Shown: positions 11,330-60,982, counted from the first letter of the stretch. The stretch is 64,000 nt of DNA from Chiloscyllium plagiosum (GCF_004010195.1 NC_057749.1:6841416-6905415); one strand, 5' to 3'. Notes: a model not told the origin generated them from the sequence alone. A program made the numbers and translations.

Positions 11330-11520
11330 GAAAAAATGTGTTGCTGGAAAAGCGCAGCAGGTCAGGCAGCATCAACGGAGCAGGAGAATCGACGTTTCGG
11401 GCATAAGCCCTTCTTCAGGAATCAGTTCCCTGATGAACGGCTTATGCCCGAAACGTCGATTCTCCTGCTCCTCGGATGCTGCCTGACCTGCTGTGCTTCC
11501 CCAGCAACAAACTCTCGACA
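11330..11520. mobile_element. PLE family A hairpin with a hammerhead in each arm
   Basis: Inverted arms of about 85 bp; cores at 11391-11418 (-) and 11430-11457 (+). Confidence 0.85.
11391..11418 (-). ncRNA. Minimal type I hammerhead ribozyme motif, core intact
   Basis: CUGAAGA-A-GGGC-UUAU-GCCC-GAAA-CGUC. Confidence 0.75.
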
Positions 11521-12275
11521 ACATGTTATTAGGAAGGCAAATTGAATGTTAGCAAGGTGGATAGACTACAAAGGTAAAGAACGTCTGTTACAGCTGTACA
11601 CTGCATTGATGACACTGCACATCGGAGTACTGTGTGCAGCTTTTGTCTCCTTGCATAAGAAGGGATGCATTTGTATTGGGAGCAGAACAATAAGGGTTCA
11701 CTAGGCTAATTTCTGGGGTGAAAGGATTATCTTGTGAGGGAAGATTGTCGAGTTTATGTCTCTACTCACTGGAGATTAGAAAAATGAGAGGTGATCTTAA
11801 CATAACAACATAAGAACTAGGAGCAGGAGTGGGCCATCTGGCCCCTCAAGCCTGCTCCACCATTCAATATGATCATGGCTGATATTTTCATGAATTCAGC
11901 TCCATTTATCTGCCTACTCCCCATAACCTTTCATTCCTTTACTGTTCAAAAATCTACCTTTGTCTTAAAAATATTCAATGAGGTCTTCAACCGTTGGGTG
12001 AAGACGTTCCCCCTCAACTCAGTCTTAACTTACTTTGACGCTACGCCCCCTAGTTCTCATTTCACCCACCGGTGGAAACAATCTCCCTGCTTCTATTTTA
12101 TCCTATTCCTTCATAATTTTTACATGTTTCTATAAGACCCCCCTCATTCTTCTAAATTCCATTGAGTACAGTACAAGTCTACTCAATCACTCCATATAAA
12201 GCAACATTCTCGATTCCAGCATCAACTTTGTGAACATCCTCTGCAATTCTGAGGTTGACAAGGTTGGATGATGAG

Positions 12276-12652
12276 GCAAAAGTGAGGACTGCAGATGCTG
12301 CAAACCAGAGTCAAGATTTAGAGTGGTGCTGGAAAAGCACAGCAGGTCAGGCAGCATCCGAGGAGCAGGAAAATTGATGTTTTGGGCAAAAGCCCTTCAT
12401 CAGGAATAGAGGCCAGAAGCCTGCAGGGTGGAGAGATAAATAGGGTGGGATGTGGGGCTGGGGAGAAGGTAGCAAGGAGTACAATAGGTGAATGGGGGTA
12501 GGGATGGAGGTGATAGGTCAGAGAGGAGGGTGGAGTGGATAGGTGGAAAGGGAGATTGGCAGGTAGGACAGGTCATGAGGATGGTGCTGAGCTGGAAGGT
12601 TGGAACTGAGGTAAGGCGGGAGAAGGGGAAAATGAGGCAACTGGTGAAGTCC
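12276..12652 (-). mobile_element. PLE family A 3' fragment
   Basis: Perfect 15-bp TSD AGGTTGGATGATGAG at 12261-12275 and 12653-12667; family A terminus; no poly(A). Confidence 0.85.
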
Positions 12653-13479
12653 AGGTTGGATGATGAGAGGATGCTTTCTCTGGTGGGCTAATCCAGAGCT
12701 AGGGGCACGGGGCTTAAAGATAAAGGATCTCCCATTCAAGATAGAACCAAGTTGGAATTCCTTCTTTCAGAGGGTCATTAGCCCTGTTTCGAAAGGCAGA
12801 AGTGAAGGCTTGAATATATTCAATAGATTTTGATAAGAGGCATAGATCATGGGGTGCAGGCAACCAAGTGGTGTTAAGGCCACAATCTGATCAATCAATT
12901 GAGTGGCAGAGCAAGCTTAATAGGTCGCCTACTTCTGCTCCTGCTTCTTATAAACTTACGGTCTTGAGAATGGCCATTTCAGTGAGATACCAGTGCCGAG
13001 GGAACCGTGACCCGGTGGATATCAAGTGTCTTGGAAGAAGGCAGCAAAATTACAAATAGGTGGGGACTGAGAGCTAGTCAGAACTTTTTTTTTCCTGTTT
13101 ATTTTAAACTATGCAATCGGTAATTACCCAAATTCAGACACAGGCAATATGGAAACAATTACCACGCTGTAGAAAATTCTGCAATGCGCAACCAATTGTA
13201 CACCTTGTGTAAAAGTGATAATTAACCGCGGGTGATAATGATTATAAAATCATTGTCTTTTCTTCCGAGCTGTGTGTTAGCGTCACGAGAAGCACCAGGG
13301 TTTTCACACTCTCTCCTCTCCAAATTATGTGACTCATAAGATCAATAATACTACGAATGTACATTTCATATTCCTTAGCACCCACTGTAGGTCAAAGCTC
13401 TTATTTGGATTTTGACAGAATCAGTATAATTATGCCCTTACAATTTTAAACCCAAGAATCTACAGCCTTGTCATTAAAT

Positions 13480-13890
13480 AATAGTAATTTGTATGTATGT
13501 ACAGCTCCCAGCACAGTAAGATATCCCAAGATACTTCTTTAGAGTGTTATCATCCAAAACGTTGACACCATGCCTCATAAGGAGATACCAGACCAGGTGA
13601 TCAAAAACCTGGACAGAGAGGTTGGTTTTCAGGAGTATCTTGAAGGAGGAGGAAGAGGTAGAGAGACCGTGAGGTTGAGGAACAAAGTGTCAAAGCTCAG
13701 GAAGCTGAACGGATGGCTGCCCATTTGCAGTGATGAAATCTGAAATGTGTGAAGCCCAGAAATTGGATGAGTGTGGAGAACTCTGAGGGTTTTAGTGTTT
13801 GCAGAGGTTACAGAAATAGTAGAGCTTGAGAAGAAATGAAAAATAAGTGCGCGTGTTTTAAAATGGAGGTGTTGTCTGACCAGCAGCAAA
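13480..13890 (-). mobile_element. Old LINE 3' fragment, L2-like
   Basis: Resembles a recalled elasmobranch L2-like 3' end; degenerate. Confidence 0.4.
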
Positions 13891-14021
13891 ATACATGTTT
13901 GGATCCCAATTCCCAGACTATCCTAGTCTGCACATGTAACGTTCCTTGCATCCTGTTTCACTTGAAAGCTATCCTGATGATGAATGTAAAATCACGTTGA
14001 AATGCGTGTTTTTTCTGGTTA

Positions 14022-14304
14022 ATAGAAGCCCTACAGTGCGGAAACAGGCCCTTCGACCCAACAAGTCCACACCGACCCTCTGAAGAGTAACCCAGCCAGT
14101 CCCATTTCCCTACCCTATATTTACCCCTGACTAATGCACCTAACCTACATGTCCCTGAACACCATGGACAATTAATCTAATCTACCCATCTTTGGACAGT
14201 GGGAGGAAACCAGAGCAAACCCACACAGACAGTCACCCAAGGCTGGAATCAAACTTGGGTCCCTGGCACTAAGGCAGTAATGCTAACCGCTGAGCCACTG
14301 TGCC
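14022..14304 (-). mobile_element. HE1-like V-SINE with internal deletions
   Basis: Head, core and tail motifs. Confidence 0.85.
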
Positions 14305-14769
14305 TAATACTAATAGATCTCTGTGTTCAGATTCAATATTAATCCATAATTTAGATGACACTGTGGGCTCAAGGGGAAGAGTTGAAAGAATAATTTGCAT
14401 CAGAAGTTAAAGAGTTAAGATAGGAGTGATCTACACTGGGATTGAGTGACTGTAAAGGATATTGGTGGGGAAAAGGATAAGCTTTTTTTTGTTTACGTTA
14501 ACATTTTTCCAAAATGTCTTACATTTATCACTTTTTTTTATCTTTTGTGTAATAAATTTATTTCTGTTGGCAGCCTTGTGGAAATATATTCAAAGATTAA
14601 TTACCATGGTAACCAAACTGTCAAAATGAGCTGACATGTCTAATCTGACCATCAGTTGGATTTGTAACAATACACACAGTACAAGGAACCCTTAAAGGTT
14701 ATTTTTCTGAAAGGCAAAGTGCACATTCACAGGGACAGTCTCGATCAGGAACATTTAATCACAGTAAGG

Positions 14770-14905
14770 CTCATTCTGAAGAAGAGTCATATCAGACTTG
14801 AAACCTTAACTCTACCCTCACTTTACATCTCATGCCAGACTCGCTTCATCTATCCAGCACTGGTGCTTCTTATTACAGGTTTCCAGCATTTGCAGTATTT
14901 TGTTT
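14770..14905 (+). mobile_element. PLE family B remnant
   Basis: CTGAAGA-A-GAGTC-ATATCA-GACTT-GAAA at 14776-14803, followed by the family B terminus. Confidence 0.65.
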
Positions 14906-14914
14906 TTACACTCA

Positions 14915-15795: not shown

Positions 15796-16533
15796 GGAGC
15801 AGTGATGCACAGCCAACCAATAACACCATTAACAGTCCTTTTATTTTCATTTTTATTCATTCACAGGAAGAGGCCAGGTCAGAAGTTATGCCCATCCCTA
15901 ACTTCCCAAGGGCAGTCCTGTCTCCACCACTTCCTTTGGCAGCTCGTTTCATGTACACACCATCCTAAGAAAGTTGCCCTTCAGGTCCCTTTTGAAACTT
16001 TCCCCTCTCAGCTTAAACCCATGTCATCCAAGTTTTGACTCCCCTGCCCTGGGGAAAAGGCAATTCACCCTATCCATGCTCCTCATGACTTTATAAACCT
16101 CTATTAGGTCACCCTACCAGAGGAAACATCTTCTCCACTCTATCCAGGCCTCCCAGCATGCTGCGGGTTCTTAGTAGCTTCTCTTCCTCAAATAATTTTC
16201 CTACTATCTAGCTCACCCTTACACTTTCAACAGGGTAATCAACCATCAACAACTACTCTCAATTTTCAGGATTTCTCTGCCACACAGATCCCGAACAAAC
16301 AGAAAATCCTGGTTTACATTTGACTGTGACTTGACGAACTATAAAGAATCAACAGTTTTCTTCCAATGAGCTGACAGTTCTCGTCAAGTGTTTGCTATGG
16401 AGCCTTTGAACACCATATAAAGACTTAGGTTGTGGTTGCTATGGTGGGTCAGTTTTGGATGTAGGTTTGCTCACTGAGCTAAAAGGTTCATTTTCAGACG
16501 TTTTGTTACCTTACCAGGTAACATCTTCAGTGG

Positions 16534-16700
16534 GAGAAAGTGAGGACTGCAGATGCTGGAGATCAGAGCTGAAAATGTGTTGCTGGAAAAGCGCAGCAGG
16601 TCATAAGCACTTCCTGATGAAGGGCTTATGCCCGAAACGTCGATTCTCCTGTTCCTTGGATGCTGCCTGACCTGCTGCGCTTTTCCAGCAACACATTTTC
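16534..16700. mobile_element. PLE family A hairpin nested in the family E element
   Basis: 14-bp TSD AACATCTTCAGTGG at 16520-16533 and 16701-16714. Confidence 0.9.
16614..16641 (+). ncRNA. Minimal hammerhead ribozyme motif, core intact
   Basis: CUGAUGA-A-GGGC-UUAU-GCCC-GAAA-CGUC. Confidence 0.75.
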
Positions 16701-18269: not shown

Positions 18270-18600
18270 ATAAGGGTCTGGTCAGACCACGTTTGGAGTA
18301 TTGTGGGCAGTTTTGGGCCCCATACCTCAGGAATATGTACTGACACTAGAGTGTGTTCAGAGGAGGTTCATGAGATTGAAAAACTAAACATTTGAGAACT
18401 CTGGATCTATACTCGATGGAGTTTAGAAGTATTAGGGGAGATCTAATTGAAATATACAGAATACAGAGGAGAAAGCAGGACAATGACGTTGAGAAACTTA
18501 TCAGGTCAGGCAGTATCTGAGGAGCAGGAAAATCGAAGACCTGCTGTGCTTTTCCGGCACCACCCTCTCAATTCGGATCTCCAGACCTCACTTTCTCCTG
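18270..18600 (+). mobile_element. CR1 fragment (about 18270-18465) followed by a PLE family A remnant (about 18468-18599)
   Basis: LVRPRLEYCGQFWAPYLR-like sequence; family A termini. Confidence 0.7.
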
Positions 18601-18610
18601 AGAAATTTAC

Positions 18611-19760: not shown

Positions 19761-20880
19761 TCCATCGTCATCAATGCCGTTTTAAGAAATGGTAGCTGAA
19801 GAGGGAGAGGGAATCAGTTCGATTACCCTGAACCTTTTGCAGTAACTCGCACTTGATCGTGACATTAAATTGCAGCACTCCATCTGCTAATACCTTACTC
19901 ATTTGAACCTATTTGCAGTGAGTGCAACTATAATGAAACATTCTGCTCCAACCTTCTAGCTCTTAGATCCAGAAATATTCTGCACAAAGTGCTTGTTCCC
20001 AAGGCCACTGTCGATTAATGTAATTCCAGATTACTGAGCTGAAAAACACAGCAGGAATGTATTTAAATGAGAGAATTAATATTAACTTGGCAACGTAAAT
20101 CAGGGCCTCGCTCTGCCTGATAGAATATTTTTTTTTGCTTGAAACTGCCTTCTACAAAGCTGCACCTCATGCATAGCAAGAAAATTCAATACATCCCCTC
20201 AGAGAGCTGAGGAGAGAAGGAAAAAGTGCAGTGAAGTCAAGCAGGATCAGGAGGTGGTCATACAGACAGTGAAAATGCTCACTCATGCTGCATTTACATA
20301 AGGGTCTAACAACGGCTTGTGGCTGAATATCTTTTCAATGTAAATCACAACAATGTCTTCATGGGGACTCATCTGGGGGTTCATGCTTTCCTTTTTATCT
20401 TCATGTGGCATCTTACCACTTGGCTCAAGAGGAGCCCACTCTATGTGGATATTTTATTGCCCAACGCAGTGAGATTGGAGGTATGGGGGGTATTTGGACT
20501 GCTATGGACCAGGTCACACCCCCTTAACATGTTTTAAGAAGGTTGCCTGGACACTAACCTTTTCTTATTTTGAAGCCAAACGTGAAGTGTCTGTGTTCCA
20601 GATGCAATGGGACTGGTCAAACTGCTTGATGTTAAACAAAACACAATTTATTCAAACACTAGAATTAAATTACAGGTCGTTCTGCTGTAATGTGCATTTT
20701 GTCAGTGTGAAGTGGCTACAACGCCATTGACGGAACTGTGGACATTGTTTGGATAATGTAAACTCTATATTGAGTGGGTATAGTGATTTTCTATTAGCGA
20801 TCCTCTACAGCGCGATGTTCTATAGTAGTATTCTGTAGCATGATTTTCTATAGCAGTATTCTATAGCGTAATTTTCTATA

Positions 20881-21350
20881 CTGAAAATGTGTTGCTGGAA
20901 AAGCGCAGCAGGTCAGGCAGCATCCAAGGAGCAGGAGAATCGACGTTTCGGGCATAAGCCCTTCTTCAGGAATGAGGAAAGTGTGTCCAGCAGCCTAAGA
21001 TAAAAGGTAGGGAGGAGGGACTTGGGGGAGGGGCGTTTCCCTCCTCCCTACCTTTTATCTTAGCCTGCTGGAAACCTATCGTATTTTCAACGCCCCTCCC
21101 CCAAATCCCTCCTCCCTACCTTTTATCTTAGCCTGCTGGATACCTATCGCATTTCCAACGCACCTCCCCCAAGTCCCTCCTCCCTACCTTTTATCTTAGC
21201 CTGCTGGACACACTTTCCTCGTTCCTGAAGAAGGGCTTATACCCAAAACGTCGATTCTCCTGTTCCTTGGATGCTGCCTGACCTGCTGCGCTTTTCCAGC
21301 AACACATTTTCGGCTCTGATCCCCAGCATCTGCAGTCCTCACTTTCTCCT
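20881..21350. mobile_element. PLE family A hairpin with internal tandem repeats of about 70 bp
   Basis: TSD CGTAATTTTCTATA at 20867-20880 and 21351-21364; intact hammerhead at 20942-20969 (-); the core near 21224 (+) is mutated. Confidence 0.9.
20942..20969 (-). ncRNA. Minimal hammerhead ribozyme motif, core intact
   Basis: CUGAAGA-A-GGGC-UUAU-GCCC-GAAA-CGUC. Confidence 0.75.
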
Positions 21351-24300
21351 CGTAATTTTCTATAGCAGTTTTCCATAGCACGATTTCTATAGCAGTATTC
21401 TATAGCATGATTTTCTATAGCAGTATTCCATAGTGTAATTTTCTATAGCAGTTTTCCATAGTACGATTTTCTATAGCAGTTTTCTATAGTGCAATTTTCT
21501 GTAGCAGTTTTCCATAGCGCAACTTTCTATAGCAGTATTCTATAGCATGATTTTCTGTAGCAGTTTTCCATAGCACAATTTTCTATAGCTGTATTCTATA
21601 GTGTGATTTTCTACGGCAATATTTTATAGCGTGATCTTCTATAGCAGTTTTCTATGCCACAATTTTCTATAGCAATATTCTATAGTGCAATTTTCTATAG
21701 CATGATTTTCTATAGCAGTATTCTATAGCGCAATTTTCTATAGCTGTATTCTATAGGGTGATTTTCTATCACAGTTTTCCATGGCACGATTTTCTATAGC
21801 GCGAGGTTGCAGAGGAACACAACTGTCACATTATAACAGAACGACCTATACAAAAAAAGAAACAAGAACTTAGATTAACTTAACTTTATTGGAAAACTAG
21901 AATAATGGATACAGTACCTATTACTAATTAACTGTTCCAATATAGTAACATCCCATAAACATACCCCTTGGCAAAGGCAAAGTCAGGCACAGATTGTCTC
22001 ACATGCACTTCAGCCACAGAGAGAGAGAAAACAAATATCAAGTGAAAACTCAGAGAGAGTAGCAGCCAGGAGACCTTTACTGCAGCTTCCAACCCTGCTG
22101 GGACTTCACCAACCAGAACTGCTTGAAGCTTGAAATCCTGGTCTGTGAGAACTGGCCACACCCATCCAGGCTGCTTCTACTGTTTCAACTTTGAAAAAAA
22201 CTTAAGGCCTCACAAGCTGTTTATGTCACCTCAGCACCTCTCATTCAATCTCTCTCTTCAAAGCAAACAGGACAAAACACACCTCTTAAAGCCATAGCAT
22301 CGTCACAGTCAGCAGAGTGTAGAGGGAGGATCTTCCTATCTCCACAGCTCTGCCTAAGTCCTGGGCAGCAGGTACCTCTTGGATAGCCTTTTTACCCAGA
22401 TGGTCATTGAAATCTTGTGTGGTTGATCCATGCCCACTTGAGAGCTTGACCCAGAAGGCTCTTGAAGTGCTGTGGTATCTCTGGACTGGAAAACACAGGT
22501 TCAAGTCCCACCTGCTCCCACAGTATGCCATGAGCAGGTCAATTGGGGAATATATAAAAGAGTCAAAAAGTGTGGTACTGGAAAAGCACAGCAGGTCAGG
22601 CAGCATCCGAGGAGCAGGAGAGTCGACATTTTGGGCATACCTGAACCAGGAGCAGCATGCAGAGAGCCAGAATGGATTTGCTTGTGGGCTTCAGGCAATT
22701 CCTGCACCCCCCACCTCATACAGTGACTGATGGATCAGCACTGGGAAGGGGCACCCCTTCAAAGGCCCACCACCCTTCCCTTTCTTCAAATCTCTTTGCT
22801 TTCTCTACTTCTCCACTGCAAGACCTTTCCTACCTTGGCCTTCCTATCCCATTCGGTCACACCTTTAACTTGGAGGGGGTGTGGTCCTCTGTTGATTCAA
22901 GGTTTCTGGCAGGTGTAGTAACAGCAGTGGCCACTGGTCTCAGTGGCGCTGATGAGCAACAGACAGCTGTCAGTCTCTGACTGGCTGGCAGTTCCCAGGA
23001 TGGGAATTCTATCTACAAAAGTCTTAAATCCCAGGCAAATCCTATTGCTGGCAACTTAAGTGCTTGACGGACAGTCAATTCTAGGAAGTTTTCCCGAAAA
23101 GAGACAACACAGTTCTCTAGCTAACGAGTAAGACTCTGAATCAGAAATGTTAAGTTCTATGATTCTAGAAATAAGTGTAACTGCATTGAACTGTGACCCT
23201 GGTTATTTGTTCAATTATAGTCGCAGAGATCGACCAACATTTGCACTTGAGCGATCAACTGATTACTCAGTCAAAAGCAATAGACTGTGAATGGTAAAGA
23301 TCTGAAATAAAAAACAGAAAGTGCTGGAGAAATGCAACATGGCAGCATGGAGAGAGAAAAACAGAGTTAATGTTTTAAGTCTGAACAGATCTTTTTCAGA
23401 ACTGAAATGATGATTATTTTGCTGGAAACAAAAGAGAGAGGAGGAGTGAGTGGAACTGATGGTGAAACTGTGCAGAGGAAAAGACAAAGGAATTTCTGAA
23501 GGTAGCAAAGGAGTGAAACAGTGACAAAGGAGCAGCCAAGTCCAAGAGATTGATTGCTATGATCATCAGCTCCTATATCTTTGTCATCAGGTGACTACTA
23601 GGATGTTAAAAACGTTTAATTATATTGTAAGACCTTGATCTCTTTTCCAGAATAATTCCATCATTGGCACAAAGTTAGTAATAGTTAAGGCACAGGAGAT
23701 GACCACAACATTGGGGCATGGTTGAACAACATGACTCAGAGATAGAAGTACCTCTTTTAATTATACATGAAGGACCATGGTCCTGAGACGAGTTGTAAAA
23801 TGCAAAATAATTGAAAATGAAATACAAATGGTGTCACCAGGTAAAGGATTAACAGAGTGACAAACCAGGCAACAGCTTTCATTCGAATCCAAGGACTATT
23901 CCTTGTTTACGAGCCCTCTTCTTTTTTGTTCACTTCATATTTTTAAAGTGACTACGCACTAATTTTCAGTGACCTGTATTTAAAAAAAAACTATTCTTGC
24001 TGCAAATATTCTATGACTACCATTTCAGAGTGACTCACTGTACCAACCAACCCTGAGGATGAATACTGAATTCTTCCAATACCTGGCAGAACTGACTCAG
24101 GAGGAAAATAATAGCATTTTTCAGGAGAACTTCCATCACAATCACTTCAACAATACTCGGGATTACATGGTAAAAGGAGAGCAGGCTGTAATTTAGAGTT
24201 TTCATTTAGTCCTAGGCAAAGATAAGAAATTGAAAAGAAATCATTTTACTGCTGACAGTCTATTTTCATTTTGCTCTATAACATTCTCTCTGTGGCAATG

Positions 24301-24550: not shown

Positions 24551-24551
24551 C

Positions 24552-24745
24552 CAAATAAAAGTAAGGTACTGCAGATGCTGGAAATAAAAACATTAAAGTG
24601 ATGAAGAATCTCAGCAAGCCCACGGGTCTTTGAGGGGACCACGTGAGTTAATGTTTTGAATCCAACGTGAGTCATTTTCTGAAAAACAGTCACACAGGAC
24701 TCCAGATGCTAACTCCTTCACTCTCCACATATGTTGCCATGAATG
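24552..24745. mobile_element. PLE family B remnant
   Basis: Family B terminus and a degenerate hammerhead on the minus strand at about 24650-24680. Confidence 0.55.
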
Positions 24746-25103: not shown

Positions 25104-25182
25104 GTTTACAATGCAGAAAGATTTGCCCCGTTATCAGCTCTGACAGTATCATGGCGGACTTAATAGTTTTCATTTCTATTAA

Positions 25183-25310
25183 CTCCTGATGAAGGGTTTA
25201 TGCCCGAAATATCGATTCTCCTGCTCCTTGGATGCTGCCTGACCTGCTGTGCTTTTCCAGCACCATACTCTCGACTCTGATCTGCAGCATCTGCAGTCCT
25301 CACGTTCTCC
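25183..25310 (+). mobile_element. PLE family A monomer starting at the hammerhead
   Basis: CTGATGA-A-GGGT-TTAT-GCCC-GAAA-TATC at 25186-25213, then the terminus CTCACGTTCTCC. Confidence 0.8.
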
Positions 25311-26799
25311 TCCTTTCCATTGGACCCAGAACTATTCCAGGCAGATGCTACGTCTGTGTTTTCATTTCAGCTTGGCTGGGAATCTGGTGAGGCACTGATT
25401 TCCTCATGAAGTGCACACACACACATTGGATTTTTCATGACTTTAAGACATCCTCAAGCACCTTACAAGCAAGGTCGAGCTCCCATGGTGTTACCACTGC
25501 AAACAAAACATTCCCACAAAATGCATTCTGATCATAATAAGGTAATTGGTTTTCTGGCTGCTGATTGATGTGCAGGAGAACTCCCCTGCTCTTCATCAAA
25601 ATTGTACCCTCTCATTTTCATTATGCCCACCCAAGATGGCAGATGAGGCCTCCAGTTGATGTCTCAAGTAAGAGACTGTTTCTCTACCAGTGCTGCATGC
25701 CCTGAATACTACCCAGAAAGTAAAAACAAAGACTGCAGATGCTGGAAACCAGAGTCTAGATTAGAGTGGTGCTGGAAATGCACAGCAGATCAAAGGCCAG
25801 TCCAGTCAGAACTGCCCAGAAGGCCCAGTCCAGATTATATACTTGCATCTCTGGAATTGAGACTTGAACCACAAATTTGGAGCTTAAAGTTGCAAGTCTG
25901 ACTTCCCCTGTGGACCACAGTTACAGCTGAAAAAGAACAAATTGGCTACAGATGGACCAAATGGCTGCTCAGAAAGAGACACCATCCCAGCTCTTGATAT
26001 GAAATGTTTTACTCAACACGCATTTTAATTCCATTTTGTTCGTTTACCAATATTTACATAGATCGGGCTGTGGAAATGCCAGAAACAGTGAAATGTGTAT
26101 CTACAAAGTGTCTCTGTTAATAACTAACATAATTCTGGTAGACCACTGCTACGTTTCACAATGACAAATCTCGGTTGCCATGGCAAGCCACGATTACTAT
26201 AAAAGAACACCCACTTACACTGGCAGGGAAAAGAAATCGCTAAATTGCCATAAACACTCAACTAACTGGAGCCTTTCCCATAATTCCAGCTGACCTCAAG
26301 CCACTCATATCAAACAGCATCTCCACAAAATGGGACACTTTAAATCAAAGGAAAAAAAATTGTATTTTTCATGGGTGCTCGTAAGAACTGGCAGGAGAGA
26401 TGTGTGTATTCACTGACAATATGTTTTTCTTTTCTCCCCAGCACCGGGTCTTGGGACCCGCTGAAACGTTGGGATCTCTTTTTGAAACGGAAAGGCTTTG
26501 AGGTTAAATTCCTGGGATAAGGAGAAAATCATTTCAAAAATCTCTTTTCTGTTTTACAGACTCATTGTTTTGAGGCTAGTTTCCTAAATCATGTTGCAAA
26601 TTTCCCGTCTAGGTAGGTGGTTAGTTCTTTTTCCATGCAAAGTGTGCTTCACTGGCTAGGTCAGCATTTTTTGTCCATCCTTAATTGCCCTCAGATGGTA
26701 GTAGTGAAACACTGCAGTCCTTATGGTGTAGGTACACTCACAGGGTTATCAGGAAGGTTTTGACAGAATGCTAGTAAAGGGCGGGAAAACTCAAAGTCA

Positions 26800-27140: not shown

Positions 27141-27437
27141 TGGGGTGCAGCTTGGAGCGAAACCAGAGGGTGGCAGTGTTCTCAGGAGTTGGATGTTCCC
27201 ATGTTGTCCGTGTGAAGGCAGAGGTTGGGGTTTGAAGGACATTGCAGGAGGTTGAATGAGTTGTGCCGTGAACATACACCCTCCTGCGTCGGTGGTGATG
27301 GGAGTCAAAATCGAAGGTATGGATGGGGCACCAATCAAGCGGGCTGCTTTGTTTTGGTTCTGACAAAGGGTCACTGAATCCAAAACATCAACTCTCCTCT
27401 CCCTCCACAAATGCTACCAGACCTGCTGCGTTTTTTT

Positions 27438-31362: not shown

Positions 31363-31516
31363 AAACTCCTTTGACTGTGACACCCAGGTTCTGAACTCCC
31401 TGGTCATGAGGTACCCTGTCAGAATTTGATTGGTTTATGTGAGATTCCCTGCTCATTCTTTTAAAGTCCAGTGAATACAGTCCTAACTGATCCAGGTTCT
31501 CTTTATACCTCAGGTA

Positions 31517-31716
31517 GGAGAAAGTGAGAACTGCAGATGCTGGAGATCAGAGTCAAAATGTGTGGTGCTGGAAAAGCACAGCAGGTCAAGCAGCATCTGA
31601 GGAGCAGGAGAATCAATGTTTCAAGCATAAGCTGTTCATCATCATTCCTGATAAAGACCTTCTGCTCCTCGGATGCTGTCTGACTGGTGAGATTTCCAGC
31701 ACCATACTTTTTGACT
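31517..31716. mobile_element. PLE family A hairpin
   Basis: Inverted family A arms. Confidence 0.75.
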
Positions 31717-32129
31717 GTCCTCATACGTCAATCCAGCCATCCCAGGAATCAGTCTGGTAAACCTTCTGTGTAGTCCCTCCAGAGCCAGGTCAACCTTCCT
31801 CAGATAAGCAGACAAAAACTGCACACAGTACTCCTGATGGGGTCTCACCAAGTCCCTGTCCAACTGCAATAGGACATCCCTGCTCTTGTACTCGAATCCT
31901 CTCACTATGAAGGCCAACATACCATTTGCCTTCGTCATCGCCTGCTGCCCATGGAGTCATAGAGCTATATACCATGGAAACACACCCTTTGGACCAATTC
32001 GTCCATGCTGACCAGATATCCTAAATTAATCTAGTATCATATGTCAGCATTTGGCCCATATCCCTCTAAACCCTTCTTATTGATGTACCATTCCGGAAGA
32101 CTATACCAGACTCCAACACTTTCCCCTCT

Positions 32130-32325
32130 GCCAATCTGGACCCCATTTACCAACTGCTTAGATAAAGAATCGGAAATGATATCACCCATCTTAAGAGACA
32201 AAGACACATACATAGAAAGCGCGACAGAAGACCAGCACTACACTGGAGGCTCACTGACGACGCTATCTGGCTTGATGACAAAATGTCTGAAAACAAACCT
32301 AACAGCTCAGCGAGCAAATTTACTA
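32130..32325 (+). mobile_element. PLE family E 3' remnant
   Basis: NLDPIYQLLR*RIGND is homologous to the peptide at 16821-16943; degenerate hammerhead at about 32254-32288. Confidence 0.65.
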
Positions 32326-33101: not shown

Positions 33102-33235
33102 AGGAGAAAGTGAGGACTGCAGAGACTGGAGATCAGAGTCGAGGAGTGTTGTACTGGAAAAGCACAGCAGGTCAGGCAATTTCCGAGGAGCAGGAGAATC
33201 GACATTTCGGGCATAATCCCTTCATCAGGAATGAG
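33102..33235 (-). mobile_element. PLE family A monomer
   Basis: Family A terminus; near-intact hammerhead at 33201-33228. Confidence 0.82.
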
Positions 33236-35187: not shown

Positions 35188-35788
35188 CACCTCCAGCAAG
35201 TTCTGACTTTGTTTCAGATCTTCAGCTTCAGCAATTCTTTTGTTTTATATCAGGATTGTAAAACACATTAAAGTACATATAGCTCCTTCGTGCCAGGAAT
35301 CATCAGCTTCTGAATCCACGCATGTTCCATTTTATTGGAATTTGGCTCAGATTTGAACTGATAGGATTTCGGAGATCTCCCTCCCATCTCTGACTCCCTT
35401 CCCACAGGAGTATCATCTTGTAGGTGCTGCCTGATACTCTGATGTCTAATGTAATTTGTCAAAGATATGCAGCTGCTAACAAAGACAGCACTGGAAAACA
35501 TGTTATGTGCTACTCAATTAAATCAGAATGCAAAACAGGCAAAACAAATCCTTCCTTATAATTTTTAACCCCGTCTCTCCACTCCCAATGACTTGATAGT
35601 TTTATAATTGAAGGACGTATACTTTTTAAGCATTGAATACATTAAGGTCTGCATTTCAGCAGAATTATCCATAATTATTGCTATTCCATGCGATAATACT
35701 CTGATATATCACATCCTCTGATTCATCTTTTGTGGTTTCTGCAATGATAAAGCAACTTTAAAATTTCTTTTCTCTCTTTGGCATACTG

Positions 35789-35958
35789 GGAGAAAGTGAG
35801 GACTGCAGATGCTGGAGATCAGAGTCGATAGTGCAGTGCTGGAAAATCACAGCAGGTTAGGCAGCATTCCTGATGAAGGGCTTATGCCTGAAATGTCAAT
35901 TCTCCTGCTCCTCAGATGCTGCTGGACCGGCTGTGCTTTTCCAGTGGCACACTCTTGA
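35789..35958. mobile_element. PLE family A hairpin
   Basis: TSD CTCTCTTTGGCATAC (35772-35786) / CTCTCTTTGGCGTGC (35959-35973); hammerhead at 35870-35897. Confidence 0.85.
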
Positions 35959-36571: not shown

Positions 36572-36786
36572 GTCAAGATTAGAGTGGTGCTGGAAAAGCA
36601 CAGCAGGTCTGGCAGCATCCGAGGAGCAGGAAAATCGATGTTTCAGGCAAAAGCCTTTCCCGATGAAGGGCTTTTGCCCGAAATGTCAACTCTCCTGCTC
36701 CTTGGATGCTGCCTGACCTGCTGTGCTTTTCCAGCACCACTCTAATCTTGACTCTAATCTCCAGCATCTGCAGTACCCACTTCTGC
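36572..36786. mobile_element. PLE family A hairpin
   Basis: Near-perfect inverted arms; 13-bp TSD CCATTCTCTTGCT at 36559-36571 and 36787-36799. Confidence 0.9.
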
Positions 36787-40703: not shown

Positions 40704-40934
40704 TAGCACCTTACATTTGACAGTGAGTGATTTTTAGTCAGGGTTTTTCAAGTGTGGGCCAATTGAGTGCCTTCAACGAATAAAATCTGGCGTTTTTGCA
40801 GTTGCTCTGATGAGTGCAAGGTGGAAAACATTGGCAACACATTTCTCTCTTCACAATTCATAATTCAAAACCTCTTGATGCCCAAGAGTTTCTCTCCAGA
40901 TTTTTTATTTTCTTAAATAAAAAAATTGGCAAAC

Positions 40935-43374: not shown

Positions 43375-44739
43375 CTTACAGTCATAAAGCGGATCATCTG
43401 ATCATTGTCAGATTGCTGTTTGGATGATTGGGTTGTCTACAAATTGGCTTCCCTATTCTTTTAAATAATAGCTACACTTCATTGGCTGCACAATTGCCTG
43501 CAAAGTTTTTTTTTATTTTCCACACATTTGTCTGTTACAACAATAAGAATTCTTTTACTCTGTCAATGATAATTTGTATGGTACTTGTCAATATGTAACT
43601 CTGTTACCAGACAGCTACAAACCAGAAAAACTGACTGTTATTTCATGTTTTATATGCCCACCCAATCTTTATCCCTCAGCTCATGAACCACGAGTTAGCT
43701 CAGAGCCAGTCTCCTCGATAATTGATTACTCAGGGATGACTACTATTCAACTCTCAGCTTAAGTTATGGCAAGACTGCATCCTACTGAACCTTCAGTGCC
43801 TCTGTGTGTCAGGAGCCTGCATTAAGGGCTGTTTATTTGGTTGTCAGCTTTTCACCAGCTTTTTTGAAGTTATTGATTAGCTCTGGATGGTTTTTCTGGT
43901 CAGCGTCTGTAATTCAGACTCACAAACAGTCCATGTCAAAAGGCCTTTAGTTATGGGAACACGTCATGCACAAGACATTGCAGACTGGCAAATATAAAGA
44001 TCATCCGGAGAACCTGCTGGTTGCTCTACACTGTTAAATTCCAACTTTTCATTTCAAAGTACTCTTTGGCCTCGCTCCTGACAACCACGATAACCTCCTC
44101 CAACTCCACATTCCTCAGGGATCTCCATGCTCCTCCAACTCATACTTCCTGTAATTCACCAGTTTTTAACATGTGAGCATGCATTCTTGACTGGAACACC
44201 AGGCATCCATGAGAGTGTCAAATCAGCCATTCCCTTTGGAAAAAGAATGCTTGCTTGACTCTCTGGATTGGAAAAGTGTTTCCATTTTGGAAAGGTTTTC
44301 ACTCCAGGGGAGATCAGTCACTGGATGAGTTCAAGGTATTTAAATAATGTCATACGCCAAAATTCTCAGGATCTTGTCTTCCCTTCAAACACTTCTATGA
44401 TTTCTCGAAAGATTCCTAACTCCTTCACTCTGTGATAAAGCCTATGCTCCAGCAAAAAATGGCGTAGAGGTCCATAGTACAGAAATAGTCTCTTCAGTCC
44501 ATTGAGCCTGTACCAGTCAAAAACAGCCACTGAACCATTGTAGCCACATTTTCCGGCTCAGAGTATTGAATGATTTGGCACTGCAAACGTGCATCTAAAT
44601 ACTTCTTCAATATATGATCTGATTGAAGTTGAAACTTTATTGCTGGAACAGCACAGCAGATCAGGCAGCATCCAGGGAACAGGAGATTCGACGTTTCGGG
44701 CACAGGCCCTTCTGATTGAACACAATGATCCTTTTAACT

Positions 44740-45828: not shown

Positions 45829-46105
45829 GCAAAGTGAGGACTGCAGATGCTGGAGATCAGAGTAAAGAGTGGTGCTGGAAAAGCACAGCAAGTCAGGCGG
45901 CATCCGAGGAGCAGGAAAAATCGACCTTTCGGGCAGGAGCCCTTCAATGAAATATCGATTTTCCTGCTCCTCGGATGCTGTCTGACCCGCTGTGCTTTTC
46001 CAGCACCACTCCAATCTTGACTCTGAGGAAGGGTCACTCGATCTGATTTGTCTCCACAGATGCTGCCAGACTTGCTGAGCTTTTCCGGCAATTTCTGTTT
46101 TGTCA
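45829..46105. mobile_element. PLE family A hairpin (45829-46024) abutting a family B remnant (46022-46105)
   Basis: Termini of both families. Confidence 0.75.
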
Positions 46106-47414: not shown

Positions 47415-47575
47415 GAGACAAGAACGCTAAAGATGCTGGAATGCAAAATAGACAGGCATGAGGCTAGAAGAATACAACAAGCCAGGCAGCATCAGGAGGT
47501 GGAGAAATGTCGACTTTTGCACCTCCTGATGTTGCCTGGCTTGTTGAGTTCTTCCAGCCTCCTGCCTGTCCAGTC
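47415..47575. mobile_element. PLE family D hairpin
   Basis: Inverted arms homologous to 55415-55630. Confidence 0.7.
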
Positions 47576-49671
47576 TGATTTAACCCATTCCCAGGATGAC
47601 TTCAATGTGTTACTTGTGGGTGCGGTTAGATTCCTCAGCTTGGCTCTATTGGCCGAAAGTGAATCCAGCAGCAGCGCAATGCCACTGCATGATCATTCAG
47701 CAAGCAGTAGATACTCACAGAATGACCAAACACAGTGCAAACCTCTTGTCAGTGAGAGCTGGCACAATGAATGATGGTTAATAGACCTCCCAGGATATTT
47801 TGCCAACCGTGGTACCATCTATTCATGGTCAAAAATGGTACATCCAGACGATGCACTGATGACATGACAGTTCCACCATCTCAGTATTGATTTTTGTGCT
47901 TTCAGTCCTTTTATTTCTCCTGCCGTCTGCAACAGGCAAATCGGTGAAGATTGCTTTGGGTTTGATAGAAGATGGTAATTTTTATTGGAAGGAATAGGTT
48001 CCTATTCCAGTAGTTGTCAAGCCTGCCAGCTACAACAACTTGAGGCAATGCTTAACGTATACAAATCTACTTCATTTAGCTTGCTGTGGCTTCACAATAG
48101 GGTGCATTTCCCTCTATTTGTCTCTGTAAGATAAAGGAATTATTGCTTGGGATGCATTGCTCCTTAATGGAGATAAATAGCTGCAATATTTATTGCGACA
48201 TAAAGCAGATAAATAGAAGCAATAATTATCAAAACATAAATTATTTACCAATAATGTGAGCATGTTTATGGTCTCTCATTTGCCTGACTGGTATGACCAA
48301 GGGCATCTTTTTTGATTTCTGCACTAAATCAGCCATACATCAATAATCTCTGCATACTCGGGGTTTTCTCTGGAGGTAATGCAAACCACGGTTTCATTTA
48401 AAATGTTGACAATATCCTGATCAGAACAAAATAGGTCATGTTAGGGGGATGCACACAATGAGGAAAGTGACAGTCAGGCAGCCACAATAATACAGCAACA
48501 CAGGGTAACCTTGAGAGCTAATGCCAGCCCTCAACCACACAGCTCAAATGGAGAATAATAGGTGTCTACGAGTAGTTACATGGCAAAAATGTAATCATGG
48601 GGTTGAGATAATACGAACAAGGCCAGTGAAACACAAATGCTTGCAAGCCATCCCATGAGGCCCATTGTGAAAGGAGTACCTTGAAATTCCACCCTTTTAA
48701 TATTTATTAAGAAGGAAAAAGGCACATTCATATGGGAAAATAAAAGCAAAATGCTGTGACGACTGGAAATCTGAAATAAAGAGGAAGCAGCCCTGACGGT
48801 TTCAGTGGAGAATGAAACAGAGGTAATGTCTATTTTGTTGAATATGATTCTTCTTCAGAACCAAGAGAGGTAGAAATGCAGCAACACTCATGATATTTTC
48901 ACCTCTCTTTACTTCCAAAGAACGTAACACATTAATTTTGTTTTTATCTCCATTGATGCCACCAGATTTCAGGATTTTTCCAGGGCTTTCTGCTCTTAGT
49001 TGGTATTCATGGTTTGTTTTGCTGAGTTTGCGTCAGGAGTTTTTGGAGGGTTTGTTGCCACAAGGCTTTGGTGAGCTCTCTCAGCCTATCTTACCCAATC
49101 CCCCCTTCACTATTAGCTCACTATGACCCAAGCCATTTCTCATGTCCAATTTCCAGCCGGTCTTACCCTGTGCCCTTCCCACAACAATACACCACTCAGC
49201 AGACATCCGCCCAGAAGACCAGCAATTTCGAAATGCTCCACACCCAGACCAGCATTGGCAATCTGGTACTGCCCCTTCCTGGCAAAACAGACAAAAAGCC
49301 GTGCATTGCATTGTGCATAACTGACACTCCTTCACCCAACAGACAACCCCATCCTCTCACACAATGTACCTGTCCTCCACTATGTTTGGTCTAAACATCC
49401 TTTAAGTCAATGCTACACTGTCTCTATTGATCACTGTAGGACCACATCCTGTTATTATCCAGTAGGGGAACATCACATACAGGCAAGCAATCAGACAAAT
49501 ACAAACACAAACGTGAGCTTTTATTTACAGAACACAAAAGGAAACAAAACAGATTGCAGCAGAGGCTGAACATTGCTGTTACTATCCTGACCAACAAAAT
49601 TTAACACACACTCACCTGTGTCTGAGTGGAAGTGGGCACCAACGAGGTTATGTCTGCCCTTGTCTGTCTCA

Positions 49672-49780
49672 CTTCCCCTGACAAAGGAGCAGCGCTCCAA
49701 AAGCTTTCGGACTATAACCTGGCGTCGTGTGGACTTCTGATTTTGTCGACCCTAGTCCAACACCAGCTCCTCCACATTGT
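49672..49780 (+). mobile_element. PLE family C monomer
   Basis: CTGACAA-A-GGAGC-AGC-GCTCC-AAAA-GCTT, then GGACTATAACCTGG. Confidence 0.7.
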
Positions 49781-52619: not shown

Positions 52620-53410
52620 ACATGCCACCAAAAGACCGCCACACTGGGCCGAGAGACTGCCACGCCAGGCTGAGAGACCACCATGCCAGGCCAACAGATC
52701 ACCATGCCATGCTGACAGACCACCACACCGGGCTGAGAGACCATCATACAGAGCTGAGAGACAACCACATTCAGGCTGACAGTCCACGATGCTCTGCTGA
52801 GAGGTCACCATACTGTGCTGAGAGACCAGCACACCGGGTCAAGAAACGACCACACTGGGCCGAGACCACCATGTGGTGCTGAGAGACACCACGCCAGGTT
52901 GAGAGACCACCATGCAGTGCTGAGAGAACACCACAACAGGCTGAGAGACCACCACGCCAGTGGAGAGCTGTCATACCAAGCCAAGAGACTATCATGCTGT
53001 GCTGAGAGACCACCACGCCAGGCTGAGAGACCACCATGCTGTGCTGAGAGACCACTATGCCAGGCAGAGAGACCACCACACCGGACCAAGAGACCACCAC
53101 ACTAAGCTGAGAGATGACCATGCTAGACTGAGAGACTGCCCCCTTCACCCCCACCTCTATCCACCTATTGCGCTCTCAGCTACGTTCTCCCAGCCCCACC
53201 CACTTCCCATTTATCTCACCACCCCCGAGGCTCCCAGCCTCATTCCTGAAGAAGGGCTCCGGACTGAAATGTCGAATTTCCTGCTCCTCAGGTGCTGCCT
53301 GACCTGCTGTGCTTTTCCAGCAACACACTCTCAGATCTGATCTCCAGCATTTGCAGGCCTCACTGTCTCCTAAGAGACTGCCACACCATGCCGTGATGAG
53401 AGGCCATTAT
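52620..53410. repeat. Minisatellite of about 21-bp units (GCTGAGAGACCACCACGCCAG), interrupted by a PLE
   Basis: Directly visible array of more than 20 degenerate units. Confidence 0.93.
53141..53370 (+). mobile_element. PLE family A 3' fragment
   Basis: Hammerhead-like core at 53246-53273 with ATTC/GAAT stem I; family A terminus. Confidence 0.8.
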
Positions 53411-55414: not shown

Positions 55415-55630
55415 TAGGCAAGCAGGAGGCTGGAAGAACACAGCAAGCCAGGCAGCATTAGGAGGTGGGGAAGTCTCAATGTTTCAGGTGTACCCCTTCT
55501 TCAGTTACACCCGAGACGCTGACTTTTCCACCTCCTGATGCTGCCTGACTTGCTGTGCTCTTCCAGCTTCCTGCTTGTGTACCTTGGATTCAAGCATCTG
55601 CATTTTCTTTTTGGCTCCAACCAAGTTAGT
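55415..55630. mobile_element. PLE family D hairpin
   Basis: TSD ACTTGACA(C/T)TG at 55404-55414 and 55631-55641; minus strand CTGAAGA-A-GGGGTACACCT-GAAACATT at 55478-55504. Confidence 0.8.
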
Positions 55631-55722: not shown

Positions 55723-56083
55723 ATAGAGTCATAGAATCCCTACAGTGTGGAAGCAGGCCATTTGACCCATCAAGTCCAAAATGCCCCTCCAAAGAACACA
55801 CCACCCAGATCCATCCCCCTATCTTATCCTTGTAACCCTGCAATTTGCCATGGCTAATCCATCCAGCCTGCACATCCCTGAACACTATGGGCAATTCAGC
55901 ATGGCCAATCCACCTAACCCGCACATCTTTGGACTGTGGGAGGAAACCAGAGCACCTGGAAGAAACCCACACAGACATGAGGAGAATGCACAAACTCGAC
56001 ACAGACAGTCGTCACAGGTTGGAATTGAACCTGGGTCCCTCATGCTGTGAGGCAGCAGTGCTAAACACTGAGCAACTGTGCCA
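55723..56083 (-). mobile_element. HE1-like V-SINE
   Basis: Head, core and tail. Confidence 0.9.
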
Positions 56084-57794: not shown

Positions 57795-58056
57795 CTTGTC
57801 CGACCTGCCTAGCTCCTTGTCCACCTATCCACTCCACCCTCTCCTCCCTGACCTATCACCTTCATCTCCTCCCCCACTGACCTATTGTACTCTCTGCTAC
57901 TCTATCCCCACCCCCACCCTCCTCTAGCTTATCTCTCCACGCTTCAGGCTCTCTGCCTTTATTCCTGATGAAGGGCTTTTGCCCGAAACGTCGATTTCGA
58001 AGCTCCTCGGATGCTGCCTGAATTGCTGTGCTCTTCCAGCACCACTGATCCAGAGT
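57795..58056 (+). mobile_element. PLE family A-related fragment
   Basis: Homologous to the reverse complement of 12276-12652. Confidence 0.8.
57965..57992 (+). ncRNA. Minimal hammerhead ribozyme motif, core intact
   Basis: CUGAUGA-A-GGGC-UUUU-GCCC-GAAA-CGUC. Confidence 0.75.
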
Positions 58057-58202
58057 TGCATCATTGCGCACACACATGGAGTCCTCTTAAAGGCAAGGCA
58101 AGAAATACCCCACTTGCTGCAAATCACCAAGGGAAATCATTGAGGCTGTTCAACGTGCTATAGAAATGCAGGGTTCTTTTTCTTTGAAACATATGACCCA
58201 TA

Positions 58203-59144: not shown

Positions 59145-59458
59145 TTCATGGAATCCCTGCAGCGTGGATACAGGTCCTTTGACCCAAAAGATACACACCA
59201 ACCCTCTGGAGAGTAACCCACCCATTCCCCTACATTTACCCCTTACTGATGCAACTAACCTATACATCACAGAACACCATGGGCAATTTATCCTGGCCAA
59301 TTCACCTAACCTACACATCTTTGGACTGTGGGAGGAAACCCACATAGACACAGGGAGAATGTACAAGCTCCACACAGACAGTAACTCGAGGCTGGACTTG
59401 AACCTGGGTCCCTGGCGCTGTGAGGGAAGCAGTGTTAACCACTGAGCTACCATGCTGC
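59145..59458 (-). mobile_element. HE1-like V-SINE
   Basis: Head, core and tail. Confidence 0.88.
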
Positions 59459-59638
59459 TCACTTAGGTAGATGCTTCAGTACACTGCTAGACTGGCAAGG
59501 GTGCAGCCTTTCAAATGAGTCCTTAAATAAAAGCGACAATGGTTCCCTGTTTTATTTTTGTTGCTCTTTCACGGGCCGAGAGCATCTCAGGGAAGGCCAG
59601 CATCTATTGTCCAGCCCTAACTGGTTTATTTCAGTCAA

Positions 59639-59836
59639 GGATGTGGAGGTGCTGGCGTTGGACTGGGCTGGACAAAGTCAGAGGTCACACGACATCAGGT
59701 TATAGCCCAACAGGTTTGTTTGAAACCTCAAACTTTTGCAGCACTGCTTCTTCATTAGGCGATGTCTACTTCACTTGCTTGTGATTTTAAACAAACCTGT
59801 TGGACTATAACCTGGTCTTACGTTCCTTCTGACCTG
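59639..59836. mobile_element. PLE family C hairpin
   Basis: TSD TTTCAGTCAA at 59629-59638 and 59837-59846; inverted arms. Confidence 0.78.
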
Positions 59837-59924
59837 TTTCAGTCAACCATACTGCTGCAGGTCTGCTTGGCTTTGTTCGAGGACATTAGTAAAGCAGATG
59901 AGTTTTTAAGCTAACAATCAATGA

Positions 59925-60235
59925 TAAAATCATAGAGTAGAAACAGGCCCTTTGATCCAACTCATCCATGCCAACCATATACCCTAACCCAATCTAGTCC
60001 CAACTGCCAGCACTTGGCCTATAGCCCTCTAAACCCTTCCTATTCATACACACATCCAGATGCCTTTTAAATAGTGTAATTATACCAGCCTTGACCATTT
60101 CCTCTAGCAGCTCACTCCATACACGCACTACCCTCTACATGAACAAGTTGGCCTTTAAGTCCCTTTGAAATCTTTCCCTCTCCCTTTGAACCTACATCCT
60201 CCAGTTTTGGACTCCCCTCCCCTGGGGGAAAGACT
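59925..60235 (-). mobile_element. CR1/HER1 LINE 3' fragment
   Basis: Homologous to 61450-61770. Confidence 0.85.
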
Positions 60236-60856
60236 GACTACCATTCTGAGACTAACTTTGCATTCCAGATGTTTTTTACTGAATTCAAATTTCACCAGCT
60301 GTTTTAGTGGGATTTGAACCCATGTTCTGAGAGCAAAAGGCTCAAGTCTTACAAGTCCAACAATATGACCCCTAAACCCCTATCCTCTCAAAGTAAAGGC
60401 TGGTCACGTTTCATTCTGGTTTGTACTTAACCAACATTCTCTTCCTAAAAGCAAAGCAATGGGTTGAAAAAACGTATATTAATTTTTCAATCAAATGTAT
60501 TTTTCTGATATTGTTTGAGTGGGAAGCCATCTTGAAATTACTTTTGAGTGTAACATTGTAAATATTTAGCGTGACATTTTCATCTTCCAGAGATACTCAG
60601 AAGAGTAACAATTCTTGTAGTATTCTGTATATCAGGAACAAGGACTGTAAATGACAAATTTATTTTAGCCAACAGACAATTGACAGTGATTTTATTGTAC
60701 AGCGTGAAACTTACTTTATTTTCATTTAGAACTTGCCAGCTTCTTAGGAACAGTTATGAAACAAGATATATTGTATTTCAATGTAAGTGTCTGGTACTTT
60801 TGGTATGGGACTGACCTTACCATTTCTACTGCCAGCCCATATAGCGTCTTGCAAGG

Positions 60857-60982
60857 AGAAAGTGAGGACTGCAGATGCTGCAAACCAGAGTTGAAAAGTG
60901 TGGTGCTGGAAAAGCGCAGCAGGCCAGGCAGCATCCGAGGGGCAGGAGAATCGACATTTCGGGCATAAGCCCTTCTTCAGGA
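60857..60982 (-). mobile_element. PLE family A monomer
   Basis: TSD AG(C/T)GTCTTGCAAGG at 60843-60856 and 60983-60996; near-intact hammerhead at 60953-60980. Confidence 0.88.

Follow-up and report, generated by a model that had tools for sequence, protein, structure and literature searches.

Minimal type I hammerhead ribozymes of Penelope-like elements (PLEs) have been known since 2014. Beyond what a search descriptor imposes, these motifs share a G10.1-C11.1 pair and a palindromic 15.2-16.2 step, and their families are full of covariation (Cervera & de la Pena 2014, PMC4209133). The insertions themselves are also recognizable: Craig et al. (PMC8557442) characterise PLEs by strong truncation at the 5' end, by partial tandem copies and by inverted 5'-truncated copies abutting the 5' end, along with a tail of 30-40 bp that is often found at one end only. 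The present analysis concerns a 64,000-nt stretch of the genome of Chiloscyllium plagiosum (GCF_004010195.1 NC_057749.1:6841416-6905415), here called the window, in which hammerhead cores of this kind occur within short dispersed insertions; all positions are those of the whole stretch. A preliminary description of it, made from the sequence alone, had announced dispersed hammerhead cores in about six Penelope-like families and had called the class a known one, as the 2014 work confirms.

Two described systems are particularly close. One is PAc, the Poseidon PLE of Anolis carolinensis, whose enzyme nicks both strands and extends each of them; its tail equals the distance between two neighbouring internal positions at which reverse transcription begins (Frangieh et al. 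2024, PMC11167929). The PAc hammerhead spans the start codon and cuts ~26 nt past it. Sequence immediately downstream is enough of a template, mutants of the hammerhead remain able to insert, and the cut site is not the end point of any RNA-seq read (PMC11167929). The other comparison is with animal non-long-terminal-repeat (non-LTR) retrozymes, which two accounts describe as short non-coding elements that contain a type I hammerhead and whose mobilisation is attributed to PLEs, with records from one cartilaginous fish and from amphibians, fishes and reptiles (Cervera & de la Pena 2020, PMC7229834; Li et al. 2026, 10.64898/2026.07.22.740005).

It is probable, at roughly three chances in four, that the insertions in the window are retrotransposition relics of PLEs of the Penelope/Poseidon kind. 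Assignment to the PLE class is well supported by two independent lines, the architecture of the motif and the anatomy of the insertions, although the defining protein test came out negative.

The family A core is captured by the exact pattern CTGAWGAAGGGC-loop-GCCCGAAACGTC, which matches the window four times and none of 100 dinucleotide-preserving shuffles of it. The matches lie at 11391-11418(-), 16614-16641(+), 20942-20969(-) and 57965-57992(+), precisely where intact cores had been reported, and the near-intact copies placed at 25186, 33201, 35870 and 60953 are present as well. An approximate core search returned 14 copies, and more decayed family A cores lie at 2189, 11431, 12376, 21225, 36660, 44690, 53246 and 31614. 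A strict descriptor, asking for both boxes, the G10.1-C11.1 pair, three or more pairs in stem II and, ahead of UH, a palindromic insert no longer than 6 nt, finds seven sites, every one of them in family A. When a relaxed descriptor is counted at increasing numbers of core mismatches against 60 shuffles, eight sites have no mismatch (the seven of family A and the family B core at 14776), against 0.05 ± 0.22 in shuffles, and 12 have at most one, against 1.22 ± 0.91. With up to two mismatches the 25 sites (12.5 ± 3.5 shuffled) are chance-like, and a lone copy whose core has two changes, like that of family C at 49678, is therefore not callable by descriptor alone. A covariance model, trained on 15 cores with a 5-bp stem II and searched with filters off, reports 26 sites at E<=0.2 in the 64 kb, comprising the 15 training rows and 11 sites outside them.

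The resulting density, ~26 cores in 64 kb, may be compared with the ~4,000 motifs of the coelacanth and ~9,000 of Xenopus counted genome-wide (PMC4209133). By our tally, ~30 insertion units cover ~4.9 kb, or 7.6% of the window; this local density is high, but one window cannot be extrapolated and a genome-wide count is needed.

In architecture, the motifs resemble the minimal hammerheads of metazoan PLEs (PMC4209133) in their CUGANGA and GAAA boxes, the one unpaired base before stem II, the G10.1-C11.1 pair, the absence of loop 3 and the palindromic 15.2-16.2 step. The boxes CUGANGA ... GAAA ... UH stand in type I order; four copies are exact, about eight are perfect for the descriptor, and the rest differ by CpG-type transitions. 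Between A9 and G10.1, families A, G, B and C have an unpaired A and family E a U or C, and the G10.1-C11.1 pair that closes stem II is replaced by G-U in B. Loop 3 is absent throughout. C-G-U-C comes straight after the GAAA box in A and E, and G-C-U-U in C, and positions 15.2 and 16.2 are a palindromic C-G or G-C, giving ACGU in A and E and AGCU in C; the family B copy at 14776 has C/C and lacks the palindrome. Stem II takes the forms GGGC/GCCC, GGGUC/GAYCC, GAGUC/GACUU, GUUACC/GGUAAC and GGAGC/GCUCC in different families, and its 4-7 bp compare with 7-8 bp in Schistosoma families (PMC4209133). As in metazoan PLEs, one genome has many families whose stems covary; most copies stand alone, and some are close neighbours on opposite strands (PMC4209133).

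Covariation of the stems had been proposed as a check, and among the window cores stem II does covary across families. It is paired in 82.9% of 111 cells against 67.7 ± 2.4% after shuffling, a level reached in none of 500 shuffles; cells with double changes number 15 against 4.5 ± 1.8 (again 0/500), and all five pairs carry them. When the partner columns are slid as a control, pairing is at most 55%. The variants common to several family A copies, at N7 (U/A) and in loop 2 (UUAU/UUUU), fall at positions that the hammerhead leaves free. Cofolding of 16600-16660 gives -30.5 kcal/mol with a forced dimer helix III, -28.6 for two monomers and -34.9 at the minimum, in a copy that is unrepresentative, its odd junction pairing with stem II; the fold of the 146-nt unit beats shuffles by a modest margin (z -1.86, equalled by 8 of 200). 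A hammerhead monomer of this build cannot close helix III, and a partner copy is needed.

The core of family A forms the first 30 nt of an interspersed module of ~129 bp, represented in the window by 26 arms. With the copy at 25184-25312 as a ruler, the core occupies module positions 3-30 and the cut site follows position 30. A blastn search with this copy gives 28 matches; nhmmer-type profiles of 18 copies and of nine long copies give 34 (E<=4.3e-5) and 36 (E<=1e-3). These profile matches take in families D (55429-55602), B (14776-14897, E 2.2e-4), G and H, all four of which are homologous to A across the whole module by nhmmer, and the “about six families” of the preliminary description are better regarded as one superfamily (A, B, D, G and H) plus E and C. 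Module positions ~48-80 are nearly unchanged in A, G and D, in which stem II and positions 31-47 differ; this common segment would fit a protein recognition element.

The further claim that the other families keep the core was right for B, which has the GAGUC/GACUU stem at 14776(+) together with an intact core and is the only match outside family A to the relaxed descriptor at zero mismatches. It was too generous to the others, whose core changes are all of the CpG-to-CpA/TpG type. The family E core at 16497-16530(-), with its GUUACC/GGUAAC stem, carries A in place of G12, and a second copy lies at 32254. Family C at 49678 has the GGAGC/GCUCC stem and the AGCU step, but with G8A and G12A, and is supported by its 5-bp stem and a model E of 0.029. 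At the family D site, 55478-55504(-), in a module homologous to A, stem II is 3-4 bp and 16.2 is mismatched. The proposed family F, at 40807..40833(+), was rejected as a hammerhead: it has no stem II and a covariance-model E of 4.4. Members that had gone unmentioned include all of family G (8397+, 27360+, 46023+ and 34796-34826-), the decayed family H (24566-24685-), further B copies at 61160+ and 23369-23399-, and the E copy at 32254+, so that E consists of two copies and C of one. The observation thus stands for family A and, by and large, for B to E, and what it brought to light are new families of a known class. Metagenome scans with the core and with the conserved downstream segment returned 0 loci each, and literature searches found nothing relevant on shark Penelope ribozymes, a 12-nt core string matching only unrelated primers.

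The anatomy of the insertions is the second line of evidence. The hammerhead lies in the terminal repeat region: its core takes up module positions 3-30, and the 3' end follows ~60-100 nt later. The 3' ends of the 26 family A arms fall into two classes ~36 bp apart, 12 at profile positions 125-129 and 12 at 87-104, with two elsewhere; the insertions thus show an optional tail of ~36 bp, comparable to the 30-40-bp PLE tail. Eight insertions are head-to-head inverted, 5'-truncated pairs whose inner junctions occur anywhere in module positions 1 to 58. Six of these pairs combine a long and a short arm, one is short/short and one is irregular, although six or more mixed pairs among eight would have a chance of 0.145 if both end classes were equally likely. 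The paired arms duplicate the same module positions, unlike the adjacent segments left by twin-priming of long interspersed elements (LINEs). Among 19 units in which direct repeats of at least 8 bp were sought at approximate boundaries, six have target duplications (10, 11, 11, 13, 14 and 14 bp) and 13 have no such repeat. At the 5' end, 13 of the 26 arms begin at profile positions 1-7 without upstream homology, and six others run upstream into a C-rich leader of ~100-166 bp, with upstream limits shared by two copies at about -166 and by two at about -103.

Probably, then, each insertion represents the 3'-terminal module of an element RNA, comprising a minimal type I hammerhead and ~60-100 nt beyond it, the latter presumably serving as the recognition and start region of the reverse transcriptase. 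Both nicked strands of the target would prime cDNA, beginning at either of two start positions separated by ~36 nt, and the outcome would be either single units or head-to-head pairs, the tail usually on one arm, with target duplications of 10-14 bp. Without a helix III loop, the hammerhead would cleave only when a second copy pairs with it through the A-C-G-U palindrome, as in tandem transcripts, and cleavage would probably be aided by protein. From the insertions we infer a PLE reverse transcriptase-endonuclease (RT-EN) as the likely mobilising enzyme, with dual-strand priming and possibly cleavage.

In PAc and in the window alike, an AUG lies in or beside CUGAUGA, the cut falls ~25 nt later and the template region is just downstream; in both, two reverse transcriptase (RT) start sites giving a 30-40-bp tail, with extension of both target strands, would account for the products. 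RT starts 111-118 nt into the open reading frame (ORF) of PAc, and the 3' ends in the window lie ~85 and ~122 nt past the AUG. No RNA ends were seen at the cut site in PAc, and no insertion ends there in the window. The AUG of PAc, however, opens the RT-EN ORF, whereas in the window the frame closes after 17 codons. The position of the 5' ends, which coincide with the core instead of the cut site, suggests an uncleaved RNA template.

Most copies in place are decayed. Mismatches to the column majority are no rarer in the core (63/505, or 0.125, at positions 3-30) than beyond it (72/934, or 0.077, at positions 31-82), also when three copies truncated within the core are left out (38/421 and 61/780). 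The changes are mostly CpG transitions striking G12, C15.2 and G16.2, and the decay is neutral. The copies with identical cores at 11391, 16614 and 20942 belong to the least diverged subfamily (96-98% identity), and the two arms of one pair differ by 4-10%, which marks the insertions as old. No copy in the window has a same-strand neighbour within one unit. “Ribozymes at high density”, as the preliminary description put it, is therefore overstated: the density is high, but these are isolated monomers in need of a partner, mostly with CpG-mutated cores that are no better conserved than their surroundings. They are best taken as fossils of an established class and not as ribozymes at work in their present sites.

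Several results weigh against a PLE origin, or against a functional hammerhead within it. There is no RT or GIY-YIG ORF in the window, as none of the 99 ORFs of at least 85 aa and none of the first 150 ORFs, scanned among the 325 of 55-84 aa, has a Pfam match; all element copies in the window are truncated. The frame opened by the AUG within CUGAUGA closes after 17 codons in three of four copies read, and therefore the module is not the start of an RT ORF, unlike in the anole element. The core mismatch rate is not below that of the rest of the module, which means that the core was not protected after insertion. Helix I consists of C-G, U-A and then a U.U mismatch, sometimes with an A-U, hence two contiguous pairs and one more at most; at 2-3 pairs it is shorter than that of metazoan PLE minimal hammerheads, 4-5 bp being reported for most; the D. 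virilis PLE motif is reported to have one of 2 bp (PMC4209133). None of the 26 arms starts at the predicted cleavage site, and neither Tandem Repeats Finder (TRF) nor blastn reveals a direct tandem or pseudo-long-terminal-repeat (pLTR) arrangement of the module in the window. The covariation figures come from a model-fitted alignment of related rows, which makes the 82.9% pairing support and not proof. Rfam has no match in the whole window at gathering thresholds; at E<=10 there are 42 weak ones, none to the hammerhead families, which have the same catalytic core. The Rfam hammerhead models presumably include the helix III that the window motifs are without. In sum, the earlier wording “PLE ribozymes” stands as regards PLE-like cores and insertion anatomy, but finds no counterpart in a coding sequence or a tandem/pLTR arrangement in the window.

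Among other explanations, the one deserving most attention, though a doubtful one, is that the insertions are not truncated autonomous PLEs at all but short non-autonomous elements of ~125-300 nt, made of the hammerhead and an RT-recognition module with or without the C-rich leader of ~100-166 nt, which parasitise a PLE enzyme. The 13 arms that start at profile positions 1-7, the recurrent upstream limits at about -166 and about -103 and the unit at 60857-60985, complete between its target duplications, are what such elements would leave, and the frame from the core AUG is closed, with no coding remnant found by the Pfam scan of ORFs in the window. A recurrent 5' end, however, might just as well be a pLTR transcription start or a preferred RT stop, and one 64-kb window cannot discriminate between these. 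The retrozyme comparison does not help the idea either. According to the two accounts cited above, retrozymes form tandem arrays, give circular RNAs and carry canonical hammerheads with a helix III stub and loop 1-loop 2 contacts, whereas the hammerhead of the window is the minimal PLE kind without loop-loop contacts; tandem units of 150-450 bp with a canonical type I hammerhead are not seen, as TRF finds no unit array and the motif has no helix III.

It is very unlikely that a LINE or short interspersed element (SINE) unrelated to PLEs supplied the module as its 3' tail, with a core that is hammerhead-like by chance or convergence. The absence of a PLE protein from the window, the failure of Rfam to detect a hammerhead, and the 5'-truncated copies with variable target duplications, as in target-primed insertion of LINEs, would all be compatible with it. 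Yet the same core recurs with different paired stems in at least five diverged families, against a chance expectation of 0.05 matches per window; the arms repeat the same module positions instead of giving adjacent segments, the two clusters of 3' ends, ~36 bp from each other, correspond to the PLE tail, and the abundant tRNA-derived SINE of the window has another tail and no module. It is harder still to believe that the inverted pairs are foldback DNA transposons, such as miniature inverted-repeat transposable elements, or hairpin RNA genes resembling those of microRNAs (miRNAs). Their hairpins are indeed long and near-perfect, with weak Rfam matches to miRNA precursors at 20965-21158, 45866-46012, 47444-47577 and 55439-55556, but these fall far under gathering scores, at about half the threshold or less. 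Moreover, inner junctions (positions 1 to 58) and outer ends vary, many arms are single, target duplications range from 10 to 14 bp instead of being fixed, and constant terminal inverted repeats are absent. Relics of Penelope-like retrotransposition thus remain the favoured explanation.

The intact family A cores occur in units of varied build. A short/short inverted pair at 11331..11519 holds the intact core 11391-11418(-) and another at 11431-11458(+) with one stem II mismatch. The pair at 16534..16700, a long arm (-) and a short arm (+) between 14-bp duplications (16520/16701), holds the intact core 16614-16641(+) and sits inside box 1 of a family E copy. In the 470-bp inverted unit at 20881..21350, a short (-) and a long (+) arm each have ~125 bp of upstream sequence, the core at 20942-20969(-) is intact and that at 21225-21252(+) decayed, and a 14-bp duplication (20867/21351) flanks the whole. 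A 68-bp unit repeated 2.5 times (95% matches) occupies its centre at 21038-21208, and the rearrangement is more complex than a two-arm join. The same unit splits a 28-bp minisatellite of ~17 units (20784-20880, 21352-21802), its 14-bp duplication lying within the repeat unit. The short-ended copy at 57797..58050(+) has 166 bp of upstream sequence and an intact core at 57965-57992 with the loop UUUU. Some ~166 bp of C-rich sequence, in common with 57797-57962, also lie upstream in the long copy at 12274..12572(-), whose core at 12376-12403 has G12A and G16.2A.

The near-intact cores include three in single long units: 25185..25311(+), the coordinate reference, in which CG has become TA at 15.2/16.2 of the core at 25186-25213; 33102..33229(-), with a 3-bp stem II and C15.2U in the core at 33201-33228; and the complete unit of ~129 bp at 60857..60985(-), with an 11-bp duplication (60846/60986) and C15.2U in the core at 60953-60980. 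The fourth, at 35870-35897(+), belongs to a long/short inverted pair at 35783..35958 with an 11-bp duplication (35772/35959). A short/long pair at 36572..36786, with a 13-bp duplication (36559/36787), has U4C in its core at 36660-36687(+), and the core of the long/short pair at 31516..31718 is decayed. So are the cores of the long copy at 53142..53371(+) (core 53246-53273, with ~100 bp of upstream sequence) and of the short-ended copy at 2126..2324(-) (core 2189-2217, with an insertion in box 1 and ~105 bp upstream). Directly upstream of the former is a 21/42-bp minisatellite at 52633-53136, with ~24 units and 67% matches. Two further short-ended copies are 5'-truncated, 44626..44713(-) within box 1, with a 10-bp duplication (44618/44711), and 22559..22639(-) at module position 16, and inverted family A fragments without a core adjoin a SINE tail at 18491..18599.

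Family G is represented by an inverted pair at 8301..8479, with a core at 8397-8426(+) that reads CUGAGGA-A-GGG..CCC-GAAAC and carries G16.2A; by a copy at 27360..27435(+) with a decayed core (G8A, G12A, G16.2A), which abuts a SINE tail; and by a deleted copy near 34796-34826(-), found with the module profile. At 45830..46091, a long/short family A pair (45830-46026) is joined by a G module with an internal deletion, which abuts at 46023. That module begins at its CUGAGGA box exactly at the end of the short arm (46023-46026), a junction that could reflect either nested insertion or a template switch.

The family B module at 14776..14897(+) has intact boxes, stem II GAGUC/GACUU and C/C at 15.2/16.2, with an nhmmer E of 2.2e-4 to module A; the second member at 61160..61190(+) is decayed, and the third, at 23300..23399(-), has G8A and G12A and a module-like downstream part. 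The family D inverted pair at 55429..55602 has its core at 55478-55504(-) and a right arm 5'-truncated within stem II, and a D-like inverted pair at 47427..47581 is 5'-truncated downstream of the core and hence has no hammerhead. Stem II of the family E core at 16497..16530(-) is GUUACC(U)/(A)GGUAAC, with G12A; that of the second member, at 32254..32287(+), is GCUAUC/GAUGAC, with 5/6 paired and one double change from C-G to U-A relative to 16497. The single family C copy occupies 49678..49706(+), with stem II GGAGC/GCUCC and the changes G8A and G12A, and family H is a decayed old module at 24566..24685(-) (model E 0.065, nhmmer E 6e-5).

Other repeats share the window. A tRNA-derived SINE of ~340 bp, with a head resembling A and B boxes and an (AATCT)n-like tail, occurs at 9685-10036 and at ~25 other sites (e.g. 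1252-1560, 24794-25102, 37555-37843 and 55732-56076) with 65-80% identity. This repeat was considered as the carrier of the module and rejected, as it has no hammerhead module. Such a SINE and the CpG decay point to a vertebrate-like source. In four cases (18599/18615, 27435/27438, 25102-25184 and 44720-44740) a module insertion sits on a SINE 3' tail or no more than 80 bp from one; either chance or a preference of the insertions for AT-rich tails as targets may be the reason. Two SINE copies meet inverted in a hairpin at 62372-62464, which has weak matches to miRNA models (41.9 bits against a gathering score of 78). A 137-bp tandem duplication at 38995-39268 (2.0 copies, 98% identity) contains a C9/G9 run, and long stop-free frames of up to 176 aa cluster on both strands at 41550-42201, with no Pfam and no repeat match.

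As PLE minimal hammerheads have been known for some time, the value of these observations is descriptive and mechanistic. Several families of the motif appear to be present at high local density in this genome, and since the standard Rfam models miss all copies, annotation pipelines would either leave them unlabelled or class them as miRNA-like. The inverted pairs, the two classes of 3' ends and the 5' ends at the core agree with the model of PLE integration recently derived in vitro. A tentative possibility is that the ~125-130-nt solo units starting at CUGANGA are not random truncations but a distinct product, either run-off cDNAs from the RT start near the 5' end of each element transcript or a minimal parasite consisting of the hammerhead and the RT-recognition module alone. 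If so, they would be among the commonest repeats of the genome, judging by the ~30 insertions and ~7.6% of the window, and would document, through natural events in vivo, two-strand priming and the two RT start sites, which have so far been seen in vitro only and for one anole element. A genome-wide survey could test the model of PLE integration on thousands of natural events.

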